NCBI GenBank assembly: GCA_041571435.1
Contig: JBFFUI010000019.1
Coordinates: forward strand, 1-38,109
Reading direction: 5' to 3'
From: Sulfurimonadaceae bacterium
GTDB lineage: Bacteria; Campylobacterota; Campylobacteria; Campylobacterales; Sulfurimonadaceae
DNA: 38,109 nucleotides
Below, one piece after another: positions 1 through 6,610 of the stretch. The first letter of the stretch is position 1. Every line of letters begins with the position of its first letter. A program made the position numbers and the translations under genes. Under the pieces are notes generated by a model. The model was not told the origin of the DNA. It made no database searches and saw only the letters and a program-made list of their open reading frames with translations.

Positions 1-17
1 ATAGGGGGGGGTGGGAC

Positions 18-410
18 ATGAAAAGATATAGGGACTGGGCAGTTTGGCTCTACATTGCTAACCTTTCACTTCTTGGGGTACACGAAATCGACTCAGCCTA
101 TTGGCATGAATGGGAAATGTTTCGTATGCCTGGAGGCATACAGCTGTTCCTCGTTCTTAACCTACTGCTCCTTTTTCTCCTAACCTACGGGCTCGTGCGA
201 GTTGCCCGTTGGCAGCCGGGCGCCAAGGTGCTCTCATTCGTCGTTGCCAGCACGGGAATATTCACCTTTCTTGTTCACACGCTTTTCTTGGTGATTGGGC
301 GTGACGAGTTTCGCTTGCCCATATCACTGATACTCCTGGGTGGAACCCTACTAGTTTCAATCGCCCAGATAGTCGTCGTAACCCGATGTGATAAGCCTGC
401 CGGGAAATGA
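18..410 (+). CDS. Small 4-TM membrane protein with HEIDSAYWHEW motif (resembles DUF6713, from memory); cassette gene
   Basis: 130 aa hydrophobic ORF, G-rich RBS, stop 3 nt before attC. Confidence 0.8.
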   Translation: MKRYRDWAVWLYIANLSLLGVHEIDSAYWHEWEMFRMPGGIQLFLVLNLLLLFLLTYGLVRVARWQPGAKVLSFVVASTGIFTFLVHTLFLVIGRDEFRLPISLILLGGTLLVSIAQIVVVTRCDKPAGK

Positions 411-413
411 GTC

Positions 414-477
414 GCCTAACAAGTCGCTTCAGCCGACGCAGGCCCTACGCCCGTGCGGCTGAGCTCCAGCGTTCTCA
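414..477 (+). repeat. attC site 1 (64 bp, GC-rich type)
   Basis: R'' GCCTAAC 414-420; GCTTCAGCCG pairs with CGGCTGAGC with one extra base; ends CCAGC-GTTCTCA (471-477). Confidence 0.85.
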
Positions 478-626
478 AATTCAGCCGCCACTCACCCGCG
501 GCCCGTTGTGTACAAAACAGGCTACCCTTCATCTAATTTTGTCTGGTTGTATGTTTTGTCCAAAACAGCTACAATTGAACAGCCCCTCACCGGTCGAGAT
601 TTTTTTATTGCCAAGGATAGGAAGTC

Positions 627-1481
627 GTGAAAACAATTTTCAGCATACTCGAAAACCGTACGCCGAAAACCATCACCAAGCTCTCATTCTTTTTGATCGT
701 GGTTTTGGGTGTCGTGCAGTTTATGGTAGGTGAAACCGTCAATATCGCTCCGCTCTATATTTTCCCGCCCCTCTTCAGCAGCTGGTACGGGTCGAGGACA
801 AGCGGTGTTTTGTCGGCTTTTTTGTCAACACTGGTCTTTGTCGTCATCGAAGCGTCTTTTGCCCGGGTTCCGCCGGCTTTTGACGGCCTGATGCTTTTTG
901 GTGCCCCCTATCTTGTCGCGTACGTCCTGCTGGCGATGCTCGTCATCAACTTCAGGGAGGTGCACCGCATAGAAGTGCATGCAGCCGATACCGACACGCT
1001 GACCGGCGTTCACAGCGCCAGAAGTTTTTATGCGGAACTCGCCAACGAGCTGCTACGTTCAAAACGATACGATCACGTCTTTTCATTGGCCTATATCGAT
1101 ATAGACAATTTCAAGAACATCAACGATTCGCTCGGGCACACCGCAGGGGACAGGCTGTTGAAAGAGGTGGCGGATTGCCTGGTGTCGTCGCTGAGGGCTA
1201 CCGACGTGATCGCGAGGCTGGGTGGGGACGAATATGCCTGCCTGCTGCCCGAGACGGCACAGGAAGAGGCAAAATCGGCGTTTTTAAAAGCCGCCGGTCT
1301 GTTGAAAAAAAGAATGAAAAAACATAAATGGGACGTGAGCTTCAGTATCGGGGTGGTCACCTTCGAGAATCTTCCGGAGGATATCAAAGAGGCGATCGAG
1401 ATCGCCGACAAACTGATGTATTCCGTCAAGAACGTAGCTAAAGACAATATCGCCTATCAGATGTACCAGGCAAACCTCTGA
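627..1481 (+). CDS. Membrane-bound diguanylate cyclase (GGDEF domain)
   Basis: N-terminal TM helices; DIDNFKNINDSLGH, RATD I-site, RLGGDEY. Confidence 0.92.
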   Translation: MKTIFSILENRTPKTITKLSFFLIVVLGVVQFMVGETVNIAPLYIFPPLFSSWYGSRTSGVLSAFLSTLVFVVIEASFARVPPAFDGLMLFGAPYLVAYVLLAMLVINFREVHRIEVHAADTDTLTGVHSARSFYAELANELLRSKRYDHVFSLAYIDIDNFKNINDSLGHTAGDRLLKEVADCLVSSLRATDVIARLGGDEYACLLPETAQEEAKSAFLKAAGLLKKRMKKHKWDVSFSIGVVTFENLPEDIKEAIEIADKLMYSVKNVAKDNIAYQMYQANL

Positions 1482-1529
1482 CAAAGCGGCTTTGCCCCGC
1501 ACGAGGCAGATCAAGAACAAGGAGTAGTT

Positions 1530-1985
1530 GTGAGTATCTCAAAATCTATCACCGAAAACATCAGCCGGACGGTCTACGGGATCATCAGTCTGTCACTCGG
1601 ACTTATCAGCCTCACCATGATCGGTTCCGCCCTCTACAATATCTGGGCTTCGATAAGCGAGCAAACACTGCTTACCAAGGCACTTCTCGACGCAGTCGGC
1701 TTCATTGTGATCGGGACAGCGGTTTTTGACGTCTCCAGATTCTTGATGGAGGAAGAAGTCTTCAAAATCCACGGCGAAGAGACGAGCATGAAACAGAGAA
1801 CGACGCTGATCAAATTTCTCATCATCATTATCCTCGCCGTCTCGCTCGAAGCGTTGGTATTCGTTTTTTCCGCTGCGAAAAAAGATGTCAGCTTGCTGGT
1901 CTACCCGACCTTTCTGATGTTGACCGCTGTTTTGCTGGTAGTCGGTTTGGGCATCTACCAGAAAATGACCCGGGAGGAACAGTGA
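1530..1985 (+). CDS. 4-TM membrane protein (PsiE-like topology, function unknown)
   Basis: AAGGAG RBS before GTG; four hydrophobic segments in 151 aa. Confidence 0.8.
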   Translation: MSISKSITENISRTVYGIISLSLGLISLTMIGSALYNIWASISEQTLLTKALLDAVGFIVIGTAVFDVSRFLMEEEVFKIHGEETSMKQRTTLIKFLIIIILAVSLEALVFVFSAAKKDVSLLVYPTFLMLTAVLLVVGLGIYQKMTREEQ

Positions 1986-2067
1986 TAATCGCTGTGAATG
2001 TTGTTGGCAGGCTATCAAAATTAAAAGTGTCACGTCAGCCATCCAGGCAAAGGATTTCACGTTTACT

Positions 2068-2139
2068 GCATAACACCCCAAAGGAGACCAATCAAAAAGC
2101 CACGGGCGGCTATATGACTGCTCATTTTAAACGTTGGGC
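2068..2139 (+). repeat. attC site 2 (72 bp, AT-rich family)
   Basis: R'' GCATAAC, inner GAGACCAATCAAAAAGCC...GGCTATATGACTGCTC imperfect palindrome, R' GTTGGGC. Confidence 0.88.
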
Positions 2140-2167
2140 AGAACAAATTCACTCTGAAAAACTATTG

Positions 2168-2173
2168 TATAAT
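2168..2173 (+). promoter_or_regulatory. Putative sigma70 -10 box inside cassette
   Basis: TATAAT ~30 nt upstream of ATG 2205 and its GAGGT RBS. Confidence 0.5.
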
Positions 2174-2204
2174 GAAATAATCCACATAGAAAAATGAGGT
2201 AGCT

Positions 2205-2915
2205 ATGACAGTTGACCAAAAAACAGTTACTAAAACTAGACCATCCCAATGGTTCAGTACAAGCATAATCTACATTTCCATACCCGCAATTCTACTGGTT
2301 TGCGGATGGGATCTCGGTTGGTGGCAAGCGTGGCTCTTTTTTGTGCTGATCGTTACGGCCGGCATAGGGGGACGCATATGGGCAGAACAGAGACATCCGG
2401 GGATTCTGGCTGAACGGTTTAAATATTCCAAGGCTCAAGGTATAAAATCCTGGGACAAAGTCATTGCCCCGTTGATGGCGTTCAGCCTCTCATTTCCACT
2501 TGTCATAGTCGCAGGCCTCGATCACCGTTTCGCATGGTCTCCACACTTGCCGATCTGGATGAATCTGCTCGGCTTTGTTCTGATCGCATTCGGATATGCC
2601 TTCGCCTCATGGGCCTTGATAGAGAATCGCTTCTTTTCCACGTTTGTACGTATCCAGAAAGAGCGTGAACATGAAGTGTGCAGTAGCGGTCCTTACGCAA
2701 TAGTACGGCATCCGGGCTACGCCGGGAATATGTTGGCCCTTCTAGGTATTGTCCTTGCTTTAGGTTCCGTCTGGACATTGATTCCGGTGCTCATGGCCAT
2801 AATAATTGCCGTGACAAGAACGGAACTGGAAGACAGAACCCTTCAAGAAGAGTTGAGAGGGTACAAAGAGTATGTACAAAAGGTACGATATAGATGGATT
2901 CCTGGGATATATTGA
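2205..2915 (+). CDS. Isoprenylcysteine carboxyl methyltransferase (ICMT/PEMT) family membrane protein; cassette gene
   Basis: Multi-TM; GPYAIVRHPGYAG, ED..L..EL.GY.EY...VRYRWIPGIY C-terminal motifs. Confidence 0.9.
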   Translation: MTVDQKTVTKTRPSQWFSTSIIYISIPAILLVCGWDLGWWQAWLFFVLIVTAGIGGRIWAEQRHPGILAERFKYSKAQGIKSWDKVIAPLMAFSLSFPLVIVAGLDHRFAWSPHLPIWMNLLGFVLIAFGYAFASWALIENRFFSTFVRIQKEREHEVCSSGPYAIVRHPGYAGNMLALLGIVLALGSVWTLIPVLMAIIIAVTRTELEDRTLQEELRGYKEYVQKVRYRWIPGIY

Positions 2916-2938
2916 TTTGAAAACATACTTATCAAGCT

Positions 2939-2972
2939 GTCCAACCAACCATATGAGCCCTATCAAAAAGCC
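2939..2972 (+). repeat. Truncated attC (left half only)
   Basis: GTCCAAC-CAACC-ATATGAGCCC-TATCAAAAAG-CC aligns without gaps to the first 34 nt of attC2 and attC3, then runs straight into ATG 2973. Confidence 0.8.
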
Positions 2973-3431
2973 ATGAAAAAACTTCTACCCATCTTACTGA
3001 TTATTATTGCTGTTATTGCTTACGCAGAAGAAGATTGTATATTTGATGAATCTACCTATATGAAATTTATCAAAGAGTACAGTGCAGAAAATAAAAACGC
3101 AAAAATCGGGCCTAATGGAAGAACACTCCTAATCAATAGGAATAATGAAGAGATCACCGTTCAAGGGGGTGGTTGCATCCACCTAGGGGTGGCCATCGAA
3201 TCAAGAACAAACCAGAACTATTCCGAGGAACAGTTTTTGCAAAAAGTGCTCAGTTTGTCCATCGAATTCGGCGACTGGTTAATAAACACCGAAGCATTGA
3301 AAGAATCTATTGAAAAAGGAAAATTCCAGAAAATAGATGGTGGTTATTTTATTGACGTTGATGCTATGACGGTGTTTGAAGCATCCTGCGACGATCAAGG
3401 TAAGATCAATGTCGATTTTTATATTAATTAA
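2973..3431 (+). CDS. Secreted hypothetical protein; cassette gene
   Basis: Signal peptide MKKLLPILLIIIAVIAYA; AT-rich; stop 6 nt before attC3. Confidence 0.82.
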   Translation: MKKLLPILLIIIAVIAYAEEDCIFDESTYMKFIKEYSAENKNAKIGPNGRTLLINRNNEEITVQGGGCIHLGVAIESRTNQNYSEEQFLQKVLSLSIEFGDWLINTEALKESIEKGKFQKIDGGYFIDVDAMTVFEASCDDQGKINVDFYIN

Positions 3432-3437
3432 AAGGGC

Positions 3438-3509
3438 GATCAACAAACTAAAGAAGCCCAATCAAAAACCCGCAGGCGGCTTTTTGATTGCTCATTTTAA
3501 ACGTTAATA
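3438..3509 (+). repeat. attC site 3 (72 bp, same family as attC2)
   Basis: R'' GATCAAC, CAATCAAAAA..CCGC..GCGG..TTTTTGATTG palindrome, CTCATTTTAAAC-GTTAATA. Confidence 0.88.
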
Positions 3510-3643
3510 CCCAATGTTACAAATCAAGTATCACGAAGAAAAAAGTCTATAATGTGCTAAAGTGTATAGTTGTAATGTAATGAAGAGTGCCACATCGCAC
3601 TTTTTTCTTCTAATTGAAATCTATAGGATTGGGAAGAAGACCA

Positions 3644-4336
3644 ATGTCAGAGACAGAAACAGAGCAAAGCATCAAGATCACAAAGAACGGCCCCCTCATA
3701 GTCAGAGGCCGTGTCCCGCTCTCCATACAGACGATCGGCGTCAACAGTGAAGGCGAAGCGGTCGAATGGATAGAGGGCGAGTGCTACCCGCTGAAGGAGA
3801 CCTATAGGCTCTGCCGATGCGGGAAGTCGAAGAGACACCCCTTCTGCGACGGGACGCACGCGAAAAGCGGTTTCGACGGCACGGAAACGGCTGACCGTTC
3901 GCCCGTTCTGGAACGTTCAAAGAGATATGACGGGCCGGATATAACATTGACCGACGCCAAAAGCCTCTGCGCCCTGGCCCGTTTCTGCAACCCGCACGGC
4001 GGGGTCTGGAACATGGTGACCATGTCGAACGACCCTGAAATAAAGCCGGTCTTTTTGCAAGAGGTGTGGGACTGCCCTGCCGGGCGGTTGGTTGCCTGGG
4101 ACAAGAAAACGGGAGAAGCCATCGAGCCGCATTTCGAGCCGTCCATTGTCCTCATCGAAGACCCGCATAAAAAGTGCAGCGGCCCCATATGGGTGCGGGG
4201 CGGCATTCCCGTCATCGGTGCCGACGGGACGCCTTACGAAGTACGAAACCGTGTCACACTCTGCCGGTGCGGGGCATCCGAGAACAAACCTTTCTGCAAC
4301 GGGAAGCATATGTTTACCCATTTCAAAGCGACATAA
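3644..4336 (+). CDS. CDGSH iron-sulfur protein (two CDGSH-type motifs flanking a ferredoxin-like Fer4_19-type segment)
   Basis: LCRCGKSKRHPFCDGTH and LCRCGASENKPFCNGKH; central C..ARFC...CPAGRL; ATG 3644 preferred over TTG 3614. Confidence 0.9.
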   Translation: MSETETEQSIKITKNGPLIVRGRVPLSIQTIGVNSEGEAVEWIEGECYPLKETYRLCRCGKSKRHPFCDGTHAKSGFDGTETADRSPVLERSKRYDGPDITLTDAKSLCALARFCNPHGGVWNMVTMSNDPEIKPVFLQEVWDCPAGRLVAWDKKTGEAIEPHFEPSIVLIEDPHKKCSGPIWVRGGIPVIGADGTPYEVRNRVTLCRCGASENKPFCNGKHMFTHFKAT

Positions 4337-4357
4337 GCATACCAAGGGGTGAAATCA

Positions 4358-4606
4358 ATGATCAAGTTACTTCATTTTAATACCATAGTAGGCACATTCT
4401 ATATCGTAAAAGCTACTGACGGCAGTTATCATCCCTATTTTGATGAGCACGACCTGGGCAGTTATCCGACTATTGTCGATGCCATTGAGGGTGTCGCGTA
4501 CGACACGTCTCTGGAACTGATCCATCCGGAGATGGGTGACCCGCTTGAGCCTACTGACCTGGGCATTCCTGATGACATAAGCGGTTGGCGTCCCGTTGAT
4601 GACTAA
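4358..4606 (+). CDS. Small acidic hypothetical protein
   Basis: GGGGTG RBS before ATG 4358; 82 aa, 21 nt after the CDGSH gene. Confidence 0.7.
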   Translation: MIKLLHFNTIVGTFYIVKATDGSYHPYFDEHDLGSYPTIVDAIEGVAYDTSLELIHPEMGDPLEPTDLGIPDDISGWRPVDD

Positions 4607-4664
4607 AGGGTCCCTCTAAACCTTTCAACGCTTTTAAGGCAGCCCCATCATAGCAGGAGGAGGC

Positions 4665-5000
4665 TCAGACTCTGGAAAGCAGGACGATGATAAACGGTAC
4701 AGGACGTTTTGGTGCGCCTGCCGCTTCAAAGACGTCACAAAACGTAGTGGCGATAGTTCTCATCATATCTTTGATGTATTCATGTTCGAACACTTCATCA
4801 AGAATTTCCATCGTTTTGTCGAGAACAGATTCAAATACGTTGGGATTGTCACGGTGAACTTCGTAAGCGGCGATGTTTTTGTCAAAACTGCAGGCGTGGT
4901 GAAAGATGTTGAAGTTCTGTTCGATCTCTTCATCGCTCAAGTCATTAAGCAGATTGTATTCGCGGACAAATTTAATGACCTCGTGTAGTTTGCAGACCAT
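4665..5000 (-). CDS. Hypothetical protein (111 aa)
   Basis: AAGGA RBS before ATG at 5000; protein-like helical composition. Confidence 0.7.
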   Translation of the reverse strand: MVCKLHEVIKFVREYNLLNDLSDEEIEQNFNIFHHACSFDKNIAAYEVHRDNPNVFESVLDKTMEILDEVFEHEYIKDMMRTIATTFCDVFEAAGAPKRPVPFIIVLLSRV

Positions 5001-5157
5001 AGTATTCCTTTTGTATTGTTTCTGGATAATATGCATAATCTGTGCAACATAGAACCTGTTCTACAAATATAGCTATGTCACAGTGTGTACATCTACCCAT
5101 TCATACTCCGGTATATTATTTCGATCTGCCATATATTTGGCATCTTTTTCTACACTT

Positions 5158-5166
5158 TGCTACAAT
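5158..5166 (+). promoter_or_regulatory. Extended -10 promoter for radA
   Basis: TGcTACAAT ~100 nt upstream of radA. Confidence 0.55.
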
Positions 5167-5263
5167 CATAGAACATTTCACTAAGGCATACGATTGAAGA
5201 GATTTTCCACCCTACCCTCATACATCAAAACCCTACCGTCAGAGTGCGCACACGAGGTGAAGA

Positions 5264-6610
5264 ATGGCTAAGAAAAAAGTTCTCTTCGAATGCCAGCACT
5301 GCGGTCTGACCTCGCCCAAATGGATGGGAAAATGTACCAACTGCGGGGCATGGGACTCCATGGTAGAGCTAAGTGAACAACAGCAGGAGATCGTCAAACT
5401 CACCTCCTCTTCACCGACAGGCAAGAGTAAAGCGCAGGCCATCAAAGATGTCACCAATACAGAGGTGTCCCGCTTTACAAGTAATGACATCGAACTCGAC
5501 ATGGTTCTCGGCGGCGGCGTCGTGCCCGGTTCACTGACGCTCATCGGCGGCAGTCCCGGGGTCGGAAAGTCGACACTGCTTCTCAAGATCGGCGCCAACA
5601 TCGCCAACGCCGGTAAAAACACCCTCTACGTCACCGGTGAGGAGTCGGAAGGTCAGGTCAAACTCCGGGCAGACCGTCTCAATGCCACAACAGAGAACCT
5701 CTACCTTCTCAGTGAAATACGGCTCGAACAGGTCCTTTTTGAGCTTGAACAGCGTGATTACGAGTTTCTGATCATCGACTCCATCCAGACCATGTACTCC
5801 GAGAACATCACCTCCGCACCGGGTTCCGTAACCCAGGTGCGCCAGATCACCTTCGATCTGATGCGCATTGCCAAGGAGCGGGGTATCGCGATCTTTATCA
5901 TCGGGCATATCACCAAAGAGGGGTCCATCGCCGGACCGCGTGTCCTGGAGCACATGGTGGACACGGTACTCTATTTTGAAGGGGACAGCTCTCAGGAGCT
6001 GCGCATTCTTCGCGGCTTCAAGAACCGTTTCGGTCCGACCAACGAGATCGGCGTCTTCGAGATGCGCAACGAAGGGCTTGTCTCGGCCAAAGACATCTCC
6101 TCGCGCTTTTTCAACCAGAGCAAAGCACAACCCGGTTCGGCACTGACTGTGGTCATGGAGGGGTCACGCCCTCTCATCCTAGAGGTTCAGGCTCTTGTCA
6201 GCGATTCACACTCGCCAAATGCCAAACGCCAGGCGACAGGGTTTGACAACAACCGTCTCAACATGCTGCTGGCCCTGCTTGAACGAAAACTGGAGATCCC
6301 GCTTAACGGGTATGATGTCTTCATCAACATCGCCGGCGGCATCAAGATCAACGAGACCTCTGCCGACCTCGCCATCCTGGCTGCCATCATCAGCTCGTTC
6401 AGAGACCGCACCATCTCAAAAGAGACGGTCTTCATCGGCGAGGTCTCGCTCGTCGGTGACATCAGAGAGGTCTTCCAGGTCGACACCCGACTGCGCGAAC
6501 TGCAGATGCACAACATCAACAAAGTCCTTCTTGCCAAAAAACCGAAAGATCTGCACGGTGTCAAATGCTACGAAGTCGACGAGGTCACCAAACTGATCGA
6601 TTGGATGTGA
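5264..6610 (+). CDS. radA: DNA repair protein RadA/Sms
   Basis: C4 zinc finger CQHCG..KWMGKCTNC, Walker A GSPGVGKST, KNRFG motif, Lon-like C-terminus. Confidence 0.98.
   Translation: MAKKKVLFECQHCGLTSPKWMGKCTNCGAWDSMVELSEQQQEIVKLTSSSPTGKSKAQAIKDVTNTEVSRFTSNDIELDMVLGGGVVPGSLTLIGGSPGVGKSTLLLKIGANIANAGKNTLYVTGEESEGQVKLRADRLNATTENLYLLSEIRLEQVLFELEQRDYEFLIIDSIQTMYSENITSAPGSVTQVRQITFDLMRIAKERGIAIFIIGHITKEGSIAGPRVLEHMVDTVLYFEGDSSQELRILRGFKNRFGPTNEIGVFEMRNEGLVSAKDISSRFFNQSKAQPGSALTVVMEGSRPLILEVQALVSDSHSPNAKRQATGFDNNRLNMLLALLERKLEIPLNGYDVFINIAGGIKINETSADLAILAAIISSFRDRTISKETVFIGEVSLVGDIREVFQVDTRLRELQMHNINKVLLAKKPKDLHGVKCYEVDEVTKLIDWM

Follow-up and report, generated by a model that had tools for sequence, protein, structure and literature searches.

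The 34 nt at positions 2939–2972 of a 38,109-nt contig from a Sulfurimonadaceae bacterium (GenBank assembly GCA_041571435.1, contig JBFFUI010000019.1) are the left arm of an attC, the recombination site of integron gene cassettes. The rest of the site is missing, and the start codon of a gene follows the arm directly. The contig as a whole is called the window here; it is contig C19 of G000, a 2.16-Mb assembly in 66 contigs. On the plus strand, the half site lies between a gene for a membrane methyltransferase of the ICMT/PEMT family (ICMT; bp 2205–2915, 236 aa) and a gene for a putative secreted protein (the secreted gene; bp 2973–3431, 152 aa). Very probably, the arm is the remnant of the ICMT cassette’s own attC, the right arm of which was deleted after insertion, so that the two cassettes are now one unit. 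As a fused two-gene cassette, the unit takes up the 1,370 bp from 2134 to 3503 of the plus strand, i.e., from the T that follows the crossover G of the full site attC2 to the crossover G of the full site attC3.

The half attC consists of R'' (GTCCAAC, bp 2939–2945), a spacer, and the left stem; the loop, the right stem, and R' are missing. A sequence-only reading of this DNA had given the segment a gap-free alignment with the left 34 nt of attC2 and attC3 and had ended the alignment at the hairpin apex. Both claims are correct. The gap-free match is 24 of 34 positions with attC2 (bp 2068–2101) and 25 of 34 with attC3 (bp 3438–3471), and nowhere else in the window, on either strand, does the segment find a match above 20 of 34. 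Similarity to the full sites extends through the last stem pair and stops short of the 4-nt loop, and ATG 2973–2975, the first start codon of its frame, comes immediately after. The inner 25 nt belong to a three-copy repeat family of the window (bp 2078–2102, 2949–2973, and 3448–3472; 84% and 80% identity).

The genome-wide standing of the half site was assessed with a position weight matrix made from the left arms of seven full attCs of the assembly and scored at ~4.3 million positions on both strands. Positions 2939–2972 score 34.0 bits, rank 9, behind eight full attCs. The next scores are 18.1 bits (C1 55343) and 16.5 bits (C44 1279), with the remainder at 15.9 bits or less, and both of these next-best positions are attC-like; C44 1279 falls inside a weak match to an attC covariance model, which was built from seven copies of the assembly’s 78-nt attC family.

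The right arm is lost, as had been claimed. The best gap-free match to the attC2 right arm in bp 2960–3437 is only 19 of 38 positions. A search for AAC...GTT pairs upstream of ATG 2973 gives no candidate, by a constrained-fold heuristic that does not discriminate (genuine attC2 reaches only −3.1 kcal/mol), and its site counts beside homologues were not used. As DNA, the remnant region is unfolded: the bottom strand has a minimum free energy (MFE) of −1.0 kcal/mol, a value equalled or bettered by 199 of 200 shuffles. R'' has no R' partner, which makes 2939–2972 a remnant and not an attC site. The half site also reads CTATC where the seven full copies have CAATC, a change at a stem position invariant among them.

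The owner of the remnant is indicated by ICMT genes elsewhere. The window’s ICMT protein matches PF04191 (6.2e-13) and PF04140 (4.7e-11) and is 83–89% identical to stand-alone cassette copies in genomes of the same genus. The gene is carried by 29 of 201 family genomes (G000 included), and the best 19 loci were examined. In five of them, L047, L048, L049, L053, and L057 (68–89% protein identity), a full attC of the 78-nt family follows the ICMT stop codon, with covariance-model scores of 25.6, 49.3, 82.9, 79.6, and 92.8 bits, respectively. The segment between the ICMT stop and the attC (bp 2916–2938 in the window) aligns with that of the relatives’ ICMT cassettes; this 22–23-nt spacer is conserved, L048, L049, L053, and L057 differing by one 1-nt indel and a few substitutions. 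The window tracks the relatives’ ICMT-attC alignment up to the edge of the loop and then diverges into the open reading frame (ORF) of the secreted gene. The left arms of the ICMT attCs of L049, L053, and L057 match 2939–2972 at 28 of 34 positions, and the remnant is therefore taken to be the ICMT cassette’s own attC, as the sequence-only reading had surmised from the cores. That is, GTTGGGC opens the ICMT cassette both in the window and in L048, the R'' of the ICMT attC in L049, L053, and L057 is its exact complement, GCCCAAC, and the remnant’s GTCCAAC differs by inspection from the reverse complement of GTTGGGC 2133–2139 at one position, so that the claimed 6 of 7 complementary positions are confirmed.

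In the remaining 14 of the 19 ICMT loci, no such attC is found directly after the gene, and in several of the 14 ICMT looks like an ordinary chromosomal gene. At one locus, L063 of genome G021, an ICMT of 65% identity directly follows a gene that is homologous (75% identity) to the small window ORF 4358–4606, and the two have no attC between them; the window ORF itself sits just outside the array. The L063 arrangement may be a lead on a resident gene that was recruited into a cassette. The nearest named ICMT homologues are from Sulfurimonas and Sulfurovum. Two homologues of 89% identity, P0122 and P0214, are labelled by their sources as belonging to metagenome-assembled genomes (MAGs) of a Thermoplasmata archaeon and of Desulfocapsaceae, respectively, so that either the cassette has spread horizontally or the contigs were mis-binned.

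The secreted gene likewise leads an independent life. Its product has, by inspection, a signal-peptide-like N-terminus, with two invariant cysteines and a GGGCxHLG motif, and matches no Pfam family. The AlphaFold model (pLDDT 87.6) resembles no clear known fold in the PDB: the best Foldseek E-value is 0.048, and the best Z from VIA-align wide, 5.8, is within noise. There are 185 metagenomic homologues, and none of 200 sampled genomes of the family other than G000 has the gene. Among 24 fetched loci (21 metagenomic and 3 from gammaproteobacterial MAGs), none has ICMT beside it. In L027, L030, and L074, the secreted gene has an attC-like imperfect palindrome of another sequence type on either side, one that closes with GTTAAAT 3–4 nt before the ATG and one after the stop codon. 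More widely, TTAAAT precedes the start in 6 of the 20 loci with upstream flank, and the ATG there is 3–4 nt past the upstream R' core. Thus, to the question of whether each ORF occurs elsewhere as a separate cassette, the answer is yes: ICMT does so in 5 of the 19 loci examined, and the secreted gene, in none of 24 loci next to ICMT, has attC-like sites of its own in three.

These loci bear on two further claims of the sequence-only reading, that the downstream gene has no Shine-Dalgarno (SD) sequence and that the deletion removed the second cassette’s leader. By inspection, the 18 nt before ATG 2973 contain none of AGGA, GGAG, GAGG, and AAGG, so that the absence itself stands. It is not a product of the deletion, however, as an SD-like 4-mer within 18 nt of the start is found in none of the 16 homologous loci whose start aligns with that of the window. 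The secreted-gene family is therefore natively SD-less, with a leader of ~10 nt, and the missing SD is not a scar. A leader was probably lost, but one of only ~10 nt, given that the ATG follows the R' core by 3–4 nt in the TTAAAT loci.

Two side observations concern this gene. The secreted-gene family carries attCs of very different sequence according to lineage (window 3432–3509 versus L025, L027, L030, L039, and L074). From the stop codon into R'', a few bases stay similar across these loci, and the rest in the window is of the host’s own 78-nt type. The pattern suggests that attC interiors are replaced or homogenized inside a host, a point relevant to how cassettes acquire their attC. Also, the ICMT and secreted ORFs are in the same frame, with TGA 2913–2915 and then 19 sense codons between them; read-through was considered and the shared frame judged a coincidence (~1 in 8 from the odds of frame and of a stop-free stretch, our own estimate).

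The two full sites that bound the unit belong to one family. attC2 (bp 2068–2139, plus strand) has R'' GCATAAC at 2068–2074 and R' GTTGGGC at 2133–2139, and its crossover is expected between G2133 and T2134. Its covariance-model match covers 2064–2141 at 81.1 bits. attC3 (bp 3438–3509, plus strand) has R'' GATCAAC at 3438–3444 and R' GTTAATA at 3503–3509 and is matched over 3434–3511 at 87.8 bits. A repeat search of the window gives the same pair as two 64-nt direct repeats, 83% identical, at 2072–2135 and 3442–3505. The start-to-start spacing of the two full repeats is 1370, and the boundaries of the fused unit were set from the R' cores. Both sites have the ends RYYYAAC...GTTRRR(Y); AAC and GTT are invariant in six of seven aligned copies, one copy having ATT. 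The consensus hairpin of the 78-nt family has 20 pairs; two columns of the left arm are unpaired in it, as is a region of 9 x 9 nt. None of the 20 pairs shows a compensatory change, so that the structure is supported by conservation only. At gathering thresholds, Rfam has no match in the whole window. The two sites fold with different strength, attC3 at −13.0 kcal/mol (z −3.27) and attC2 at −8.7 kcal/mol (z −1.08). Three substitutions relative to the family consensus break stem pairs in the attC2 right arm, and attC2, which bounds the fused unit on the left, may be in decay too. attC3, the last attC of the array, is the sole intact site left to the unit.

An attC is recognized in single-stranded, folded form, with R''/R' and L''/L' pairing. 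A remnant that cannot fold would thus be dead as a recombination site, and with the remnant dead, 2134–3503 would be one unit bounded by attC2 and attC3. Its content agrees with a fused cassette: attC2 and attC3 enclose two complete, co-oriented ORFs that are separated by a remnant of the first cassette’s attC, and each gene is independent elsewhere, ICMT in 5 of 19 loci and the secreted gene in L027, L030, and L074.

The junction was checked in Logan contigs of four runs aligned to window 2000–3700. Runs X1 and X2 are from one study, possibly the source study, X6 is from a second, and X5 from a third. Contigs from X1 (783 nt, 2 differences), X2 (712 nt, 12 differences), and X6 (508 nt, 29 differences and 2 gaps, ~94% identical) bridge 2972/2973 with at least 61 nt on either side. 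The X5 contig (151 nt, 1 difference) covers 2831–2981 and is counted as weak, since it reaches only 9 nt past the junction. The fused junction is thus kept in a lineage diverged by ~6% (X6). A further X6 contig, of 906 nt, runs through 2820–2925, continues with 37 other nt, which make the left arm full-length (R'' GTCCGAC), and goes on with 3464–3699. It likely represents, if real, ICMT with a full attC and the window’s downstream flank but no secreted gene, that is, an empty-site allele. In X1, depth is 63–168 over ICMT versus ~9 over the secreted gene. This contrast indicates that ICMT cassettes are common in these samples and that the fusion is one variant among them.

We propose that an ICMT cassette stood in an attC array and that a secreted-gene cassette either integrated at the ICMT attC or lay behind it. 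A deletion of ~40–45 nt would then have taken out the terminal loop, the right stem, R', and a secreted-gene leader of ~10 nt, with the result that the left arm abuts ATG 2973. The size is reckoned from the 66 nt between R'' and the crossover G of a full site (attC2 2068–2133), of which 34 nt are left, and a leader of the TTAAAT type. Insertion first and deletion second is the order we infer. The attC3 boundary is canonical, ending G|TTAATACC, and the X6 contig without the secreted gene has this flank after the ICMT attC; such a downstream boundary fits an ordinary insertion at the ICMT attC followed by the deletion. The deletion was probably due to hairpin-promoted slippage or breakage. Section 2.4.4 of PMC8876359 names as routes to fusion both slippage of replication at the stem-loops of attCs and illegitimate events involving the integrase. 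A further candidate was considered and found to have no support. The nuclease SbcCD prefers hairpin loops and might have cut this one, yet SbcD (TIGR00619) was not found in the assembly at E ≤ 0.001, and the control matched in 13 of 14 genomes.

The two genes may now share a transcript, for which the ICMT leader could plausibly supply the promoter. The leader has a candidate −10 box, TATAAT, at 2168–2173 (plus strand), to which CATAAT corresponds in position in L048 and AATAAT in L049, and an SD, GAGG, stands at 2196–2199 (plus strand) ahead of the ICMT ORF. A promoter scan of 400–5300 gave 7 promoter-like sites versus 6.8 expected, which is the chance level and supports no promoter, so that the reading of TATAAT as a cassette-internal −10 box is a consensus-level lead only. 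Between 2915 and 2973, the scan lists no terminator-like site on the plus strand. About 75 nt after attC3, at 3582–3605 (plus strand), there is a terminator-like hairpin with a T-run (9 pairs, 3 of them G-C), possibly the end of a transcript over both genes. The RNA of 2933–3012 is predicted to be nearly structure-free (MFE −2.0 kcal/mol; 191 of 200 shuffles fold at least as well). The SD-less second gene could plausibly be translated by direct loading of ribosomes at this near-structureless start, or by re-initiation 57 nt past the ICMT stop.

Mobility of the unit depends on an integrase. The only two tyrosine recombinases of the assembly are on C11 and C2, and C19 matches neither PF00589 nor TIGR02249. 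With no intI beside its array, the window does not qualify as a complete integron; with attC1, attC2, and attC3 within 414–3509 and no integrase on C19, it does qualify as a cluster of attC sites lacking an integron integrase (CALIN). C19 begins inside the array, however, so that the missing intI is not proven absent and the integrase end may be unassembled. In the family, 50 of 201 genomes have an integron integrase that scores above the NCBIfam cut-off, and 8 of 15 genomes of the same genus have an integrase match at E ≤ 1e-30. The sequence-only reading had held that the fused unit is excisable only between attC2 and attC3. The part that survives is that two cassettes are locked as one; the excision itself needs an integrase, and none was found, and the stem of attC2 is degraded. 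The weakened attC2 and the lack of an integrase together make mobility of the unit doubtful.

Several points weigh against the account as a whole. No integron integrase is found in the assembly, the best TIGR02249 score being 58.3 bits versus a cut-off of 265, and insertion or excision would thus call for an IntI that was lost, is unassembled, or acts in trans. With attC2 weakened, the fused unit may no longer be mobile at all. The intermediate, ICMT followed by a full attC and then the secreted gene, was not observed: none of the 24 secreted-gene loci has ICMT, and tblastn of the window’s proteins gave no secreted-gene match in the 19 ICMT loci. The 906-nt contig crosses a high-copy repeat (depth of 440–460 in the X6 attC bins) and could be a graph chimera. 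The junction cannot be placed to the base, which makes microhomology not assessable. The window and P0002, a full-length 152-aa homologue of 89% identity, have an extra AAA codon (MKKLL versus MKLL at the start) that is unexplained. Finally, raised expression from removal of the hairpin should not be assumed.

In the strongest rival, the structure is the same but is the product of neutral decay, not operon formation, in a genome that lost its integrase and whose attC sites, without upkeep, erode by deletions; the fusion would have no consequence for expression, or the secreted gene would be silent. We regard this as possible, if on balance doubtful. In its favor are the lack of a detected IntI, the three disruptive substitutions in the attC2 stem, the CAATC-to-CTATC change of the half site at an otherwise invariant stem position, and the presence in the assembly of a second damaged attC (C38 19997–20043). 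It sits less well with the persistence of the fused junction in the ~6% diverged lineage of X6, with the full-length P0002 that shares the MKKLL start, and with a start region that is unusually structure-free.

At the other extreme, the loss of the arm might have been a selected, hairpin-guided event and not random decay. We entertain this only tentatively and think it unlikely. In its favor, the break is at the 5' edge of the terminal loop. Removal of the stem would leave among the least structured start regions possible, for a gene that as a stand-alone cassette has an SD-less start only 3–4 nt from the base of the upstream attC stem, and would place that gene behind a cassette with its own candidate promoter. 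If true, loss of the arm together with adoption of the next attC would explain how one ORF family comes to have different, lineage-specific attC types, and would bear on the open question of how cassettes acquire an attC.

Returning to insertion followed by deletion, that order competes with an origin in one step, by illegitimate joining at an extruded hairpin loop or by aberrant integrase recombination inside the attC when the gene arrived. No intermediate with a full attC between the genes was found, as a one-step event would have it. We nevertheless find it quite improbable: the attC3 boundary is canonical, with the same flank after the ICMT attC in the X6 contig, and insertion at a secondary site in the loop would have put the ICMT right arm 3' of attC3, where it is absent. 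That the junction is a chimeric contig join at a repeat is conceivable for a 66-contig genome in which several contigs end in attC arrays. It is very improbable here, given three independent bridging contigs from three runs and two studies, and the half site, diverged from the high-copy attC consensus, is not a shared repeat at which a graph could be mis-joined. Chance resemblance in an ordinary intergenic spacer, to which the BLAST E-value of the inner 25 nt alone (only 0.56 genome-wide) lends some color, is effectively refuted by a matrix score of 34.0 bits versus at most 18.1 everywhere else except full attCs, at the exact orthologous position of a full attC in five relatives.

The remaining features of the array are as follows. 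attC1 (bp 414–477, plus strand) is an attC-like imperfect palindrome of another sequence type, with R'' GCCTAAC at 414–420 and R' GTTCTCA at 471–477. It lies directly 3' of a DUF6713 ORF (18–410), its bottom strand folds at −15.1 kcal/mol, and G000 holds no repeat of its type beyond the window’s own single copy. The unit between attC1 and attC2 (472–2133, 1,662 bp) likewise has two ORFs, for a GGDEF diguanylate cyclase (627–1481) and a 151-aa membrane protein (1530–1985); no attC remnant was seen between these two, by eye only. The covariance model finds ~12 attC sites in the assembly, on C7 (3), C38 (3), C1, C48 (2), C44, and C19 (2), and these roughly 12 copies lie directly 3' of ORFs with the next ORF close behind. 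The damaged attC of C38 (19997–20043, minus strand) is 47 nt long. It keeps R'' GCATAAC, R' GTTATGC, and the outer stem and lacks the top of the hairpin, a symmetric internal deletion as opposed to the one-sided loss in the window. C19 begins within a cassette (window 1–17), and C38 at its end and C48 at its start terminate inside attC arrays. With several sites at contig ends, the arrays of G000 are probably broken by assembly, as parts of one or a few larger arrays that the assembler split at repeats.

Operon formation through loss of an attC has already been published for class 1 integrons (PMC4670013, PMC8876359). The sections of these papers on cassette fusion describe fused cassettes that arose by partial or total loss of an attC, are excised as one circle, and give a polycistronic transcript from the promoter of the first cassette, a state ‘comparable to bacterial operons’. 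The closest parallel is blaGES-1/aacA4 of a Pseudomonas aeruginosa class 1 integron, reported by Fonseca and Vicente (PMC4670013). There, as in the window, the first attC is partly lost and both coding regions are kept. The passages on this pair state that the truncated site is no substrate for the integrase, that the pair is excised as one circle and transcribed as one mRNA, and that loss of the stem-loop is proposed to aid translation of the second gene (PMC4670013). The two cases differ in three respects. blaGES-1/aacA4 keeps only the 6-bp 1L core, 91 bp being lost, whereas the window keeps the whole 34-nt left arm and is broken at the edge of the loop. The former resides in a mobile resistance integron with IntI1 and Pc, and the latter in an integrase-less attC cluster of an environmental Sulfurimonadaceae with non-resistance genes. 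And blaGES-1/aacA4 was tested experimentally, whereas the window case is known from sequence alone.

A second parallel is blaOXA-10/aadA1, for which section 2.4.4 of PMC8876359 describes a promoter upstream of blaOXA-10 that serves both genes. That is the arrangement proposed for the window, where the counterpart of the blaOXA-10 promoter is only a candidate TATAAT hexamer, its place kept in two relatives. As an array, the window resembles the CALINs of Cury et al. 2016 (PMC4889954), which are described there as at least two attC sites within 4 kb with no integron integrase nearby; the window has three attCs within 3.1 kb and no IntI on a 38-kb contig, one that differs in starting within the array, so that the integrase end may be unassembled. 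For Sulfurimonas autotrophica, the IntegronFinder results given in PMC10295459 include In0 and CALIN. A word search of the open-access literature turned up no description of a fusion like the present one in Campylobacterota or in a CALIN, though this does not prove that none exists.

Some cassettes have two genes by nature. The toxin-antitoxin cassettes of Vibrio arrays, for example, have more than one ORF between two attCs, and these ORFs are functional couples with no attC remnant between them. Unlike those, the ICMT–secreted gene unit has a recognizable half site and stand-alone versions of both genes, which indicates a secondary fusion. The unit suggests that loss of an attC arm also fixes gene pairs in the environmental attC arrays of sulfur-oxidizing Campylobacterota, among which integrases are common (the 50 of 201 family genomes above). 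It would be a clean natural substrate for asking whether IntI can act on a left arm alone and whether removal of an attC hairpin alters the translation of an SD-less downstream gene. Descriptions call fused cassettes rare, and most known ones come from clinical class 1 integrons; the present case has an unusually complete comparative record, in that both genes occur as separate cassettes elsewhere, an allele that lacks the second gene likely exists at this locus, and the fusion persists in a lineage diverged by ~6%.

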